64,000 bases of DNA from an uncultured bacterium (GCA_963727715.1 CAVSGX010000004.1:8455-72454), one strand, 5' to 3'. Shown: positions 55,351 to 57,702, counted from the first letter of the stretch. Translations and numbers: made by a program. The notes: a model not told the origin generated them from the sequence alone.

Positions 55351-55605
55351 AGCACTAATTTTTGGAGTCAAGATTTTCACTTGACAAACACATTTTTTTC
55401 TTATTATTTCATAGGAGGTACTTCGTATGCACATATTTGAGGTTTTTGTATGTGTTGTTTTGGCAATCATGTTTCTTCCTTTGCCAATTTTCTTTTTGCG
55501 TTTTATTGCTTGTATAATAACTGATGCTGATTAAATCTAATCAGTTATTAGTCGACTTGAGTGATTTTGTCAAATCACTCTTTTCTTTTTCCAAAAATTA
55601 GTGCT
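55351..55605 (+). mobile_element. MITE-like cassette with 15-bp terminal inverted repeats AGCACTAATTTTTGG / CCAAAAATTAGTGCT, inside 16S intron 2 and antisense to the rRNA; carries a promoter, RBS, 35-aa ORF and terminator
   Basis: TTGACA (55381) -N15- TATTAT, AGGAGG (55414), ATG 55427, terminator gagtgattt-tgtc-aaatcactc followed by a T-run. Confidence 0.6.
55427..55534 (+). CDS. Small hydrophobic peptide (35 aa) MHIFEVFVCVVLAIMFLPLPIFFLRFIACIITDAD
   Basis: Consensus RBS 8 nt upstream, single predicted TM helix, own promoter and terminator inside the TIR cassette. Confidence 0.5.
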   Translation: MHIFEVFVCVVLAIMFLPLPIFFLRFIACIITDAD

Positions 55606-56641
55606 GGATCTCCCAGGGTCATTTATATTTCTGTTCCAAACATCCGAATCGAGATTTTCGATAAGATTTATCGTGTGCTTCCTTCTGACTCACCGCAGAA
55701 GTCGCACATCTCTTTTTTTTGATTCGGCTGCTCTTTGCTACTAGGATCCTTCAGTCCAGTCATTGCTGATTGTGGACCTACCCGTTCGCTATTTTCACAC
55801 TCCTGTGAAAAGTTGGATTTGAACCAACTAGATATATAAACTGCCTGGCGCATTTTATTCTGAGTACAAGACTTGAGAACGTATTCACCGCGGTATGTCT
55901 GACCCGCGATTACTAGCAATTCCAACTTCATGGGGTCGAGTTTCAGCCCCCAATCTGAACTGGGGCGACTTTTCTAAGGATTGGCTCAGGGTTACCCCGT
56001 CGCAACCTGTTGTAGTCGCCATTGTATTATGTGTGTAGCCCAAGGTATCAAAGGGACATGCTGATCTGGCGTCATCCTCGCCTTCCTCCCAGCTCCAGTT
56101 GCGCAAGATGAACGAACTCGGTTAAGACCGAATACGGACATCGATGTTTGCACAGAGAGACATCTACTTATGATGTTCTTGTGCAACTGGAGCTGGGCAG
56201 TCTCGCCTGATACTTATAACAGACAACGAGGGTTGCGTTCGTTACCCCACTTAAGGGAACAATTCAAATCACGAACTGACGACGACCATGCATCACCTGC
56301 CTAACTGTCCTTGTGGGACCGCAAACGTTTCTGCTTGCATTCAGTTAGGTTTCAAACCTTGGTAAGATTCTTCGTTTATCATCGAATTAAACCACATAAT
56401 CCACTGCTTGTGCAAGTCCCCGTCTATTCCTTTGAGTTTTAGCCTTGCGGCCGTACTACCCAGGCGCTTGACTTAACGCGTTAGCTACGCCACGCAGAGG
56501 GTCGATACTCCGCATAGCTAGTCAAGATCGTTTAGGGCGTGGACTACTGGGGTCTTAATGTTACTTCAAAATTTTGGGAAATTTTGAGGCACAACATTTC
56601 TGTTGTACTCTGCATGTTGCCATGCAGTTCGGACTATATCT

Positions 56642-57403
56642 TTATCTGTATGTATTCCACTTAGCTTTTTTCTTTTCATATTCTGCTATTATGACAGATT
56701 CTGAAAAATTACTAAGAGAAACCATTTCAGATATCCAGCGTTCTTGAAATTGAGAGTTTTTATATAGAAGAATTGCTTTGGATAACATGCTCGATACTGG
56801 TATGTATGGCAGTATGATACGCAAGAATTTTTTTAATTCTTCTTGTGACCTAATCCATAACCGCCAGTATTGTTCTTGCTTCCCATCTTGCTTACGCCCG
56901 ACGGGGGCAACAATGGCACGAACATCCCAAACAACTTTAAGATAGCGAGCTAGCATTTCGACTGATTGTTTTGAAAAACCATCAGTACAAAACACACCTT
57001 TTCTGGCGCCGTAACCAATAAGCGAACCGTCATCACACCACCAAACGGCGAGTGATAACGCTGTCATTTGATTAAGCCACCTACGCTCTATAAGCAATTT
57101 ATTTTGTTTGTGAGTTAAATGATGAAGTTCTGTAAGAGATGAAGTTCGCCTACTGGCAAATCTCCATTTTTTGTTCTTACTGTATCCATCAGGTTCCTGC
57201 ACAAACACACTGCTATCTCCTGCTATCTCTTTGAGAGCTTGCGCTTTCCATAAGAGATAATCTTTCTGCATTTCCGAATGACGAATTTGTAAATTCGCAT
57301 TGAAATAATTTTTTTGGATTTTTAGCGAGCCGTCTCCAAGGATTGAACCGAAGATAATAGCTTTCGCTTCATCCGACAAAGGCACATATTTCGTATCATG
57401 CAT
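56642..57403 (-). CDS. LAGLIDADG-family homing endonuclease (double-motif) encoded within 16S intron 1
   Basis: IIFGSILGDGSL and LAVWWCDDGSL are two LAGLIDADG motifs; 253 aa. Confidence 0.85.
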   Translation of the reverse strand: MHDTKYVPLSDEAKAIIFGSILGDGSLKIQKNYFNANLQIRHSEMQKDYLLWKAQALKEIAGDSSVFVQEPDGYSKNKKWRFASRRTSSLTELHHLTHKQNKLLIERRWLNQMTALSLAVWWCDDGSLIGYGARKGVFCTDGFSKQSVEMLARYLKVVWDVRAIVAPVGRKQDGKQEQYWRLWIRSQEELKKFLRIILPYIPVSSMLSKAILLYKNSQFQERWISEMVSLSNFSESVIIAEYEKKKAKWNTYR

Positions 57404-57480
57404 ATAATTTTAAGTTAATTGCACGACGACAGAATAGCACCAACTATCTTACTCAATTTCATAGTCTCTACGGGGTTTCT

Positions 57481-57702
57481 AGCACTAATTTTTGGAGTCA
57501 AGCTTTGACTTGACAAGATTCATTTTATGATTTAACATCAATTCCAGGAGATTAACTCGATGGAATTTATTATGATATTGATCTGTTTAGGAGTTTTTTG
57601 TTTGATCACAGATATGATGATAACTGTTGCTATTGATATCTGTGAATGGATCGATCATTACCTGCACCGGCTTTTATAGCGGTGCAGTTTTCTTTTTCCA
57701 AA
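57481..57702 (+). mobile_element. Second copy of the TIR cassette (same AGCACTAATTTTTGGAGTCAAG terminal repeat), inside 16S intron 1 and antisense to the rRNA
   Basis: TTGACA (57510) -N17- TAACAT, AGGAG (57546), ATG 57560, terminator ctgcaccgg-cttttatag-ccggtgcag followed by a T-run; the interior differs from copy 1. Confidence 0.6.
57560..57679 (+). CDS. Small hydrophobic peptide (39 aa) MEFIMILICLGVFCLITDMMITVAIDICEWIDHYLHRLL
   Basis: RBS AGGAG 10 nt upstream; one TM helix plus a short polar tail; same cassette architecture as 55427..55534. Confidence 0.5.
   Translation: MEFIMILICLGVFCLITDMMITVAIDICEWIDHYLHRLL

Follow-up and report, generated by a model that had tools for sequence, protein, structure and literature searches.

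A bacterial 16S ribosomal RNA (rRNA) gene was found on the minus strand of a 64,000-nt DNA stretch from an uncultured bacterium (GCA_963727715.1 CAVSGX010000004.1:8455-72454; the whole stretch is referred to below as the window, and positions are counted from its first letter). The gene is interrupted by two insertions, each of which contains a small repeat-bounded cassette, E1 (255 bp) and E2 (232 bp), with the signals of a short gene on the opposite strand. According to the comparative sequence analysis, E1 and E2 probably belong to a family of non-autonomous insertion cassettes of 160-420 bp, specific to the rRNA genes of the candidate phyla radiation (CPR, or Patescibacteria), in which a constant shell surrounds an exchangeable cargo placed antisense to the rRNA. 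A preliminary description of the two elements had suggested that they are mobile, and this was borne out by homologous introns free of the repeats, near-identical introns with unrelated interiors, one cargo present in three different introns, and the occurrence of the same shell in other hosts.

Cassettes E1 and E2 in the window

Cassette E1 occupies positions 55351-55605 and cassette E2 positions 57481-57712, both on the plus strand (antisense to the rRNA); the end of the second element had previously been placed at 57702, 10 bp too early. The same inverted repeats bound both elements, as first described. The repeat search located AGCACTAATTTTTGGA (55351-55366) and TCCAAAAATTAGTGCT (55590-55605) at the left and right ends of E1 and the corresponding repeats of E2 at 57481-57496 and 57697-57712. 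The exact 15-mer AGCACTAATTTTTGG is present in the window in four copies forming two inverted pairs (55351/55591 and 57481/57698), and no other copy was found. The repeats are longer than initially noted, with perfect pairing over 19 bp in E1 (55348-55366/55590-55608) and 22 bp in E2 (57475-57496/57697-57718); the closing stems, which include three and six base pairs of the host sequence, respectively, span 55348-55608 and 57475-57718. The 11-mer core AATTTTTGGAG was counted four times in 64 kb against 0.28 expected, a number reached in none of 100 shuffled sequences. A role of this core resembling that of a DNA uptake sequence was considered and rejected, since there are only four copies in 64 kb and all of them lie within three repeat-bounded elements.

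All gene signals of E1 and E2 were found on the plus strand, opposite to the 16S rRNA gene, which agrees with the antisense placement reported earlier. In E1, the left repeat is followed by a hairpin (GTCAAG-ATTTTCA-CTTGAC, 55367-55386) carrying a putative -35 element TTGACA (55381-55386), a weak candidate -10 element at 55402-55409 (TATTAT at a 15-bp spacer or TTATTT at 17, read from the sequence), a Shine-Dalgarno (SD) sequence AGGAGG (55413-55418, also read from the sequence), a listed open reading frame (ORF) for the 35-aa peptide MHIFEVFVCVVLAIMFLPLPIFFLRFIACIITDAD (55427-55534), and a predicted intrinsic terminator at 55559-55590 (hairpin 55559-55580, T tract 55581-55590). The hairpin and promoter of E2 extend over 57497-57538 (GTCAAG-CTTTGA-CTTGAC), with TTGACA at 57510-57515, a 17-bp spacer, and TAACAT at 57533-57538 identified by the promoter scan; they are followed by the SD sequence AGGAG (57546-57550, read from the sequence), a listed ORF for the 39-aa peptide MEFIMILICLGVFCLITDMMITVAIDICEWIDHYLHRLL (57560-57679), and a predicted terminator at 57662-57697 (hairpin 57662-57687, T tract 57688-57697). 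The strong ribosome-binding sites, the ORFs of 35 and 39 aa with one hydrophobic helix each, and the intrinsic terminators had been correctly recognized before. The near-consensus promoters ascribed to the two elements hold for both -35 hexamers and for the complete E2 promoter, but the -10 element of E1 is weak. Each peptide contains one strongly hydrophobic stretch, with 17-residue Kyte-Doolittle maxima of 2.86 (E1) and 2.55 (E2).

The two cassettes share the left stretch AGCACTAATTTTTGGAGTCAAG-loop-CTTGACA and the right stretch TTTTCTTTTTCCAAAAATTAGTGCT, and the alignment of their interiors was no better than chance, which confirms the earlier view of different interiors within the same architecture. 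The predicted rRNA-sense folds are closed by the repeat stem (z-scores -9.4 and -11.8). Searches for Rfam families inside the cassettes returned chance-level matches only. Two promoter-like sites on the minus strand inside E2 correspond to the background level (17 sites found in the region vs. 10.3 expected from shuffles).

A third repeat-bounded element of 169 bp is located at 61675-61843 in the intergenic region upstream of a secD-like gene, outside the rRNA gene. Its perfect 32-bp inverted repeat ACAAATCCGACTGGCATAATAAATTTTTGGAG contains the AATTTTTGGAG core and surrounds an internal hairpin TTGTCAAG...CATTGACAA; it has no ORF, its fold z-score is -12, and it is present in a single copy in the window and absent from 136 fetched loci. 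This element may be a cargo-less relative of the rRNA cassettes outside rRNA genes.

The host 16S rRNA gene extends over approximately 55040-58592 (minus strand; Rfam SSU_rRNA_bacteria matches), with tRNA-Ile downstream of it. Its exons were delimited at ~57854-58592, 55861-56553, and ~55040-55165 (minus strand), the ends being read from the sequence against the E. coli 16S motifs, which we take to be GAUUAGAU joined to ACCC and UGUACACA joined to CCGCCCGUC. Insertion 1 (56554-57853, minus strand), the host of E2, was assigned to group I introns on the basis of sub-threshold Intron_gpI matches at 57680-57777 and 56610-56758 and of the Rfam alignment, in which P4-P5-P4' is followed by P6 continuing straight into the E2 repeat. 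From this alignment, the predicted position of E2 is the tip of P6/P6a. The same insertion encodes a LAGLIDADG_2 homing endonuclease of 253 aa in rRNA-sense orientation (56642-57403, minus strand; ORF list, with Pfam PF03161 recorded for an identical product). Insertion 2 (55166-55860, minus strand), the host of E1, appeared as a gap in the SSU alignment after model position 1389, at about E. coli 16S position 1400, and gave a weak, sub-threshold RF01998 match (55302-55388); of the two insertions, group I features were detected with Rfam only in insertion 1. Group II-like insertions at site 16IS9 (~position 1400) have been reported in CPR bacteria by Tsurumaki et al. (PMC11270868). For the insertions homologous to insertion 2 in L008 and L014, the RF01998 match attains the gathering score, and by our own reading of the sequence E1 lies ~70 nt ahead of a domain V-like hairpin. 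The initial designation of both hosts as introns is retained for insertion 1 as a group I intron, but insertion 2 is described here as group II-like, with sub-threshold support from RF01998.

The cassette family in CPR rRNA genes

CPR bacteria are known for their insertion-rich rRNA genes. Further copies of the terminal repeats, whose search had been advised at the outset, were found in large number. One genome per prokaryotic species was scanned with the left 19-mer as the query, the right repeat lying outside the query. This gave 15 matches, 12 of which were real elements of the same build, all in CPR genomes (Saccharibacteria, Parcubacteria, Zambryskibacteria, Taylorbacteria, and Minisyncoccia) and all with a perfect right repeat 170-345 nt downstream. 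The metagenome scan was anchored on the inner part of the repeat (AATTTTTGGAGTCAA-N6-10-TTGACA), and a looser regular expression added three variants, two of which lack the hairpin. Genomes and metagenomes together yielded at least 47 unique cassettes of 159-418 bp from several CPR lineages, with several copies per genome seen; no element longer than 420 bp with the cassette shell was present among the matches listed. The E2 peptide had no match in 50,697 phage records and the 19-mer none in viral contigs, which gives no indication of a phage origin; the peptide was not on record in the contig index either.

At least 57 metagenome matches, over half of those from the metagenome scan, carry CCCCCG or TCCCCG ahead of AATTTTTGGAGTCAATTTATAAAATTGACAC and were set aside as a eukaryotic genome repeat. 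This repeat, GGGGGGAGAGC-CCCCCGAATTTTTGGAGTCAATTTATAAAATTGACAC, fits the 21-nt search pattern by chance (many of L017-L135) and is often placed at contig ends; one such contig (L086, 1-713) encodes a PAX paired-box domain.

All 45 cassettes tested for orientation are located inside 16S or 23S rRNA genes and are antisense to the rRNA, and both cassettes are on the same strand in the contigs containing two. The occupied sites number at least six in 23S and three in 16S. Three types of host were recognized, namely group I introns (at the P6 tip), insertions of the group II-like type, and, in at least one case, a native 23S helix. In the group I hosts, the cassette with its stem is flanked by ACGGGG on the left and ACTTCCC on the right. 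Relatives of E1 were found in position-1400 group II-like insertions (L010, L023, L008, and L014). In L002 (Saccharibacteria), there is no intron, and a 240-nt insert with its repeats takes the place of a native 23S helix (model positions 151-178 of the Rfam LSU alignment). As far as the alignments show, the cassettes sit at insertion-tolerant hairpin tips, namely the group I P6, the predicted position ~70 nt before the domain V-like hairpin, and a native 23S helix.

The constant shell was shown by these comparisons to consist of a left 16-bp repeat and a predicted 6-bp hairpin with the -35 TTGACA on one side and of a T tract and the matching repeat on the other. The 16-bp terminal inverted repeats were nearly always perfect in 44 cassettes. 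No variation was seen in the inner repeat AATTTTTGGA/TCCAAAAATT, even on the right side, which none of the queries selected. The six outer base pairs differ among cassettes and do so in a covarying manner (AGCACT/AGTGCT, AACACT/AGTGTT, AGTACT/AGTACT, CGTTCA/TGAACG, CGCTCA/TGAGCG, and GATGCT/AGCACC), and three more base pairs in the host flank are nearly always paired. Among 25 distinct shell sequences, 97.5% of the stem cells were paired and 8 of the 19 pairs were changed on both sides. The stem covariation score was 0.311 vs. 0.103 in shuffles (equalled in none of 500) and did not exceed 0.103 when the partners were slid; the mismatches were too few for the G-U vs. A-C comparison to tell which strand is under selection. 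The innermost pair of the 6-bp -35 hairpin covaries as well, being G-C, T-A, or A-T in 38 of 44 cassettes. In L018 (1164-1398) and L103 (3593-3826), the first arm of this hairpin is missing and TTGACA directly follows the left repeat; thus, the hairpin appears to be dispensable in some copies.

The interior is variable and, as shown by its predicted signals, contains a -10 element (often extended), a short leader with a strong SD sequence, an orphan ORF of 30-85 aa or none, and a private terminator. Nearly every cassette had TAnnnT 16-18 bp past the -35 element, often with a TG upstream of it. The distance from the -10 element to the start codon is ~6-40 nt, with an exposed GGAGG-type SD sequence, and some starts leave little or no leader; an SD match of at least 4 nt precedes most of the listed ORFs. 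A private GC-rich hairpin with a T tract ending 5-15 nt ahead of the right repeat was found in 42 of 44 cassettes, and every hairpin sequence was different. The median longest ORF was 49.5 aa on the plus strand vs. 30 on the minus strand and 29 in shuffles (plus strand longer in 37 of 44 cassettes), and the ORF covers about two thirds of the interior (median 0.67).

Several lines of evidence point to insertion and exchange. Homologous group I introns with a short P6 hairpin tip and no trace of the repeat were found; for example, L133 has ACGGGGTCATTC-GCCTGTGGC-GAAGACTTCCC, the filled counterpart of which is GGGGTCATTC-cassette-GAAGACTTCC. Comparison of the repeat-free site GGGGTCATTC-GCCTGTGGC-GAAGACTTCC with filled sites revealed that the loop is replaced. 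Because of these short repeat-free tips, the cassette together with its repeats is regarded as an insertion. A homologous group I intron in L096 (minus strand, position 2306) carries at the P6 tip a different insert of 117 nt without an inverted repeat, which could be either a degenerated cassette or an insert of a different type.

The all-against-all BLAST of the interiors revealed one identical pair and one related trio, the other interiors being unrelated. The window intron and its counterpart in L007 differ at ~4 of 150 positions in the left flank and at none of 150 in the right flank, whereas the cassette interiors are unrelated in sequence, length, ORF, and terminator. The identity stops inside the -35 hairpin and restarts at the T tract, and the same break pattern was observed in L003 and in the E1-class insertions. 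These alignments show that the cargo has been replaced as a unit within an unchanged shell and has not diverged in place. In the trio (L037, L080, and L093), the interiors are 72-80% identical and reside in three introns at different 23S positions, which share only a short P6 motif. The presence of homologous cargo in three different introns implies that cassettes or their interiors move between introns.

A membrane-type hydrophobic segment was predicted in 24 of 45 cargo ORFs; about 15 cargoes are soluble (35-84 aa), and about five cassettes, including L002, L012, L114, and L117, have no convincing ORF. The trio keeps a frame of 33-35 aa with a conserved transmembrane core and a nonsynonymous to synonymous substitution ratio (dN/dS) of 0.23-0.94, while the other two frames contain stop codons. 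Since the gene signals are conserved as features while the sequences differ, and since the trio keeps its reading frame, we conclude from the sequences that the plus-strand units are probably genuine transcription units, most of them protein-coding. Searches of 37 cargo proteins against Pfam, NCBIfam, and PADLOC gave scattered chance-level matches only (E >= 0.001), none of them to a toxin family, and so the suggested comparison with known toxin families produced no match. No nuclease domain (LAGLIDADG, GIY-YIG, HNH, or similar) was detected in the cargo, which is 30-85 aa long and has no Pfam domain. The E2 peptide had no relative among 1.84 billion representative proteins, and three larger cargo proteins were singletons among 5.8 billion proteins. 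Some cargo ORFs are annotated by gene callers as hypothetical proteins inside rRNA genes; the conserved repeats could be used as a marker for finding more copies.

Proposed model and competing explanations

According to the proposed model, the repeats would pair in the rRNA-sense transcript into a perfect helix of at least 19 bp (19-25 bp), stacking on the host helix. This closing helix would seal the insert off, and the folding of the intron or rRNA would survive; its stacking on the host helix would explain why P6 tips, the group II-like insertion, and rRNA helices all accept such inserts. By analogy with classical rRNA intervening sequences, it is a probable substrate of RNase III. The cargo could be exchanged by recombination within the ~20-bp shell ends (e.g., homologous recombination after DNA uptake) or by a trans-acting enzyme, and the spread may be aided by intron homing and by recombination between conserved rRNA genes. 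Selection would explain the strict antisense orientation most simply, and more simply than a toxin-antitoxin function: a terminator, promoter, and SD sequence in the sense direction would harm rRNA synthesis, and only antisense insertions would persist. The cassette mRNA would be fully complementary to the abundant pre-rRNA and transcribed head-on against it; cargo expression is expected to be low during rRNA synthesis and to increase as rRNA transcription declines. With hydrophobic cargo like that of E1 and E2, this inverse coupling to the pre-rRNA would act like a type I toxin-antitoxin pair. More tentatively, the cassettes might represent a new class of mobile element, an expression shell (inverted repeats, -35 element, and terminator tail) restricted to CPR rRNA genes and introns, between which, and between genomes, orphan small-protein or small-RNA cargo would be exchanged, with the antisense placement serving as a switch that would allow cargo synthesis only once rRNA synthesis has stopped and the hydrophobic cargo as growth-arrest or addiction toxins.

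Several points weigh against this model. Target-site duplications were not found, and the 3 nt flanking the cassettes are complementary (TCC/GGA, TCT/AGA, and TTC/GAA) and do not form direct repeats. Neither a mobilising enzyme nor an autonomous partner was found, and shell arms of ~20 bp are short for homologous recombination. Conservation of the shell is partly a matter of ascertainment, the queries having demanded the 19-mer or AATTTTTGGAGTCAA...TTGACA; the right repeat, T tract, -10 element, SD sequence, terminators, orientation, and location are free of this search bias. Only one G-U pair was counted in 475 stem cells, which is unusual for a helix under RNA-level selection alone; together with the strict conservation of the inner repeat, it may indicate an additional role of the repeats at the DNA level or in protein recognition. 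The -10 element of E1 is poor and did not pass the promoter scan. The group II assignment of insertion 2 combines a sub-threshold match, the published site survey, and our reading of the domain V-like hairpin. Expression of the gene units, cleavage by RNase III, and inverse coupling to rRNA synthesis are what we infer from the sequences.

The preliminary description likened the elements to type I toxin-antitoxin systems (a small membrane toxin plus an antisense RNA) or to a selfish add-on stabilising the intron. In the form considered here, the membrane peptide would be the toxin and the pre-rRNA or intron RNA its antitoxin, and the pair would stabilise the intron by killing cells that lose it. 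Neither function was established, and we consider such an addiction system unlikely. It would account for the peptides of E1 and E2 (35 and 39 aa, one hydrophobic helix each) and the similar cargo in 24 of 45 ORFs, for the full complementarity of every cassette mRNA to a highly expressed RNA (all copies being antisense), and for the conserved transmembrane core of the trio. However, with about one third of the cargo soluble (~15) and about five cassettes without an ORF, toxicity cannot cover the whole family, and the Pfam, NCBIfam, and PADLOC searches linked none of the cargo to known toxins. A dedicated antitoxin gene with its own promoter is lacking, the sole expected minus-strand transcript being the pre-rRNA with its intron. 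The mRNAs of type I toxins are structured and translationally inert, whereas the cassettes have short leaders with an exposed strong SD sequence and no long structured 5' untranslated region. Where cassettes lie directly in rRNA helices, there is no intron to stabilise. A toxin-antitoxin reading is possible for the hydrophobic cargo and is not supported as a general explanation.

Still less probable is an ordinary miniature inverted-repeat transposable element (MITE) or mobile insertion cassette (MIC), moved in trans by a transposase that recognizes the terminal repeats, with the promoter, ORF, and terminator as passengers bearing no relation to the rRNA. The absence of a target-site duplication and the mutually complementary flanks argue against such an origin, as do the unrelated interiors, unlike those of MITE families, and the single orientation of 45 of 45 cassettes in rRNA genes. 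Moreover, variation is found at the outermost positions of the repeats, which are normally required by transposases. This has to be set against the perfect conserved terminal repeats, the small size, the lack of an own enzyme, the several copies per genome, the sites present or absent among homologous introns, the almost purely Watson-Crick stem expected for DNA repeats, and the window element at 61675-61843, which shares the AATTTTTGGAG core outside the rRNA gene. The only transposase in the window belongs to an IS30-like element (53285-54300; transposase gene 53340-54296, plus strand) that adjoins tRNA-Ile and the rRNA gene. It was rejected as a mobilising partner because its repeats (AAGTAGGACAG...) differ from those of the cassettes; a 12/15 match at 54264-54278 is internal to this element and at chance level.

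It is very improbable that the plus-strand RNA itself is the product, i.e., a cis-antisense regulator of intron splicing or rRNA processing in which the ORFs are incidental. The promoter and terminator without a convincing ORF in L002, L012, L114, and L117 and the long-range self-complementarity in the L002 interior could be understood in this way, but most cassettes have a strong, well-spaced SD sequence and an ORF over about two thirds of the interior, the trio keeps its reading frame with synonymous changes, and the RNA could pair only with the complement of its own cassette, which is dispensable for the host RNA. Finally, the view that the inverted repeat is a conserved peripheral intron helix, resembling a promoter and ORF by chance, was rejected: the repeat does continue P6 in the Rfam alignment, extending it in the rRNA-sense RNA with 3-6 bp of pairing added by the host stem, but it lies outside the conserved intron core, the P6 tip of homologous introns can be short and free of the repeat, group II-like insertions and a 23S helix contain the same shell, and cassettes of unrelated sequence all preserve the features -10 element, SD sequence, ORF, and terminator. 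The refuting conditions of the preliminary description concerning further copies and the conserved intron structure thus turned out in its favour.

Relation to known systems and further features of the 16S rRNA region

The model of a constant shell with exchangeable antisense cargo was compared with known systems, each of which fails at least one tested defining feature. Intervening sequences (IVSs) of rRNA are known from the helix-9/25/45 regions of 23S and 16S rRNA in Salmonella, Leptospira, and Coxiella, some with an S23p ORF, and are thought to spread horizontally. Like the cassettes, they add DNA at a helix tip of an rRNA and are closed by a long inverted-repeat stem. The insert of L002 replaces the native 23S helix in exactly this fashion, whereas E1 and E2 are nested at helix tips of insertions; to our knowledge, classical IVSs are not found nested inside group I or group II introns. 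Their ORFs are rRNA-sense, and they have neither an own promoter nor a constant shell with exchangeable cargo. IVSs are excised by RNase III (PMC11270868, PMC4990558). The cassette stem of at least 19 perfect base pairs would be compatible with such excision.

Correia elements, the MITEs of Neisseria, resemble the cassettes in being short, non-autonomous, and bounded by inverted repeats, in forming an RNA hairpin on read-through, and in possibly carrying promoter elements. These and other MITEs have target-site duplications, homologous interiors, and no gene or terminator, and are scattered over the genome; the cassettes lack the duplication, contain unrelated interiors, and are confined to rRNA genes. 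Constant terminal repeats around variable passengers, with no internal transposase, are likewise a feature of MIC231 of Bacillus cereus and of other passenger-carrying elements derived from insertion sequences. The ends of MICs can be traced to a known insertion sequence; its transposase mobilises the MICs, and target duplications are made. For the cassettes, neither a cognate insertion sequence nor a duplication was found, and their shell also supplies the -35 element and the terminator T tract.

In type I toxin-antitoxin systems (hok/sok, ldr/rdl, fst, txpA/ratA, and aapA/isoA), a small hydrophobic peptide gene lies under an abundant antisense RNA, as in E1, E2, and about half of the family; the cassettes differ in having no toxin homology, no dedicated antitoxin gene, short unstructured leaders, and many soluble or non-coding cargoes. 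In integron cassettes as well, highly diverse small ORFs, many of them orphans, are joined to a constant recombination end and exchanged as units. Integron cassettes are promoterless, have a single attC, and need an integrase and attI, whereas the rRNA cassettes carry their own -35 and -10 elements and two identical inverted ends; the ORF lists for the surroundings of the rRNA gene revealed no integrase. ORFs for homing endonucleases that loop out of group I intron helices (such as I-TevI in P6a of the T4 td intron) are also independent expression units at the tip of a peripheral intron helix, and phage morons are promoter-ORF-terminator units added to a genome. In contrast to both, the cassette cargo is 30-85 aa long and without a nuclease domain, antisense, bounded by inverted repeats, and exchangeable.

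The preliminary description was not aware of an earlier account, and none was found in the literature. The repeat sequence was not found there, and searches on MITEs in CPR or on type I toxin-antitoxin systems with rRNA introns gave no relevant match. The systematic survey of CPR rRNA insertions (PMC11270868) makes no mention of inverted repeats, antisense genes, or promoters, and it leaves uncharacterised the short insertions of Saccharibacteria and those that are neither an intron nor a homing-endonuclease gene. The family, widespread and apparently undescribed, could be regarded as resembling IVSs or MICs, with a conserved expression shell around antisense cargo that can be exchanged; to call it a new element class may well be justified. 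It would account for part of the unexplained CPR rRNA insertions and, where the cassette lies within an intron that itself interrupts an rRNA gene, add a third level of nesting. In these very small genomes it would also constitute a reservoir of orphan small proteins that look expressed, and it would provide a natural case of a constant promoter/terminator shell with exchangeable cargo.

Further features were noted in and around the 16S rRNA gene of the window. A 110-nt hairpin insertion with 21-nt arms (95% complementary) is located at 56088-56197; it corresponds to a 99-nt insert near Rfam model position 1157 and has neither the cassette shell nor an ORF. The 16S tail past helix 45 reads GGUCGUGGAAUAAUUCAAUU (~55030-55050, minus strand), and no CCUCC anti-SD sequence was recognisable there or further downstream, despite the GGAGG-type SD motifs upstream of ORFs in the window; a further 3' insertion or an atypical 3' end may be present. 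An intrinsic-terminator-like hairpin lies at ~54786-54812 directly past the 16S rRNA gene, ahead of a sense-oriented mini-gene in the spacer between this gene and tRNA-Ile (54475-54770, minus strand). The mini-gene has a predicted promoter (TTGACT-18-TATAGT with an upstream TG), a GGAGG SD sequence, an ORF ending at 54497 for a 74-aa product with two hydrophobic stretches (MSLSTLKK...), and its own putative terminator (54504-54475). The double-hairpin motif AAGCCGACG..GTCGGCTCCCCGACC..GTCGGGGTT flanks the 16S rRNA gene on the plus strand (54824-54870 and 58830-58881); both copies score as plus-strand terminator-like sites and are direct repeats, not a processing stem.

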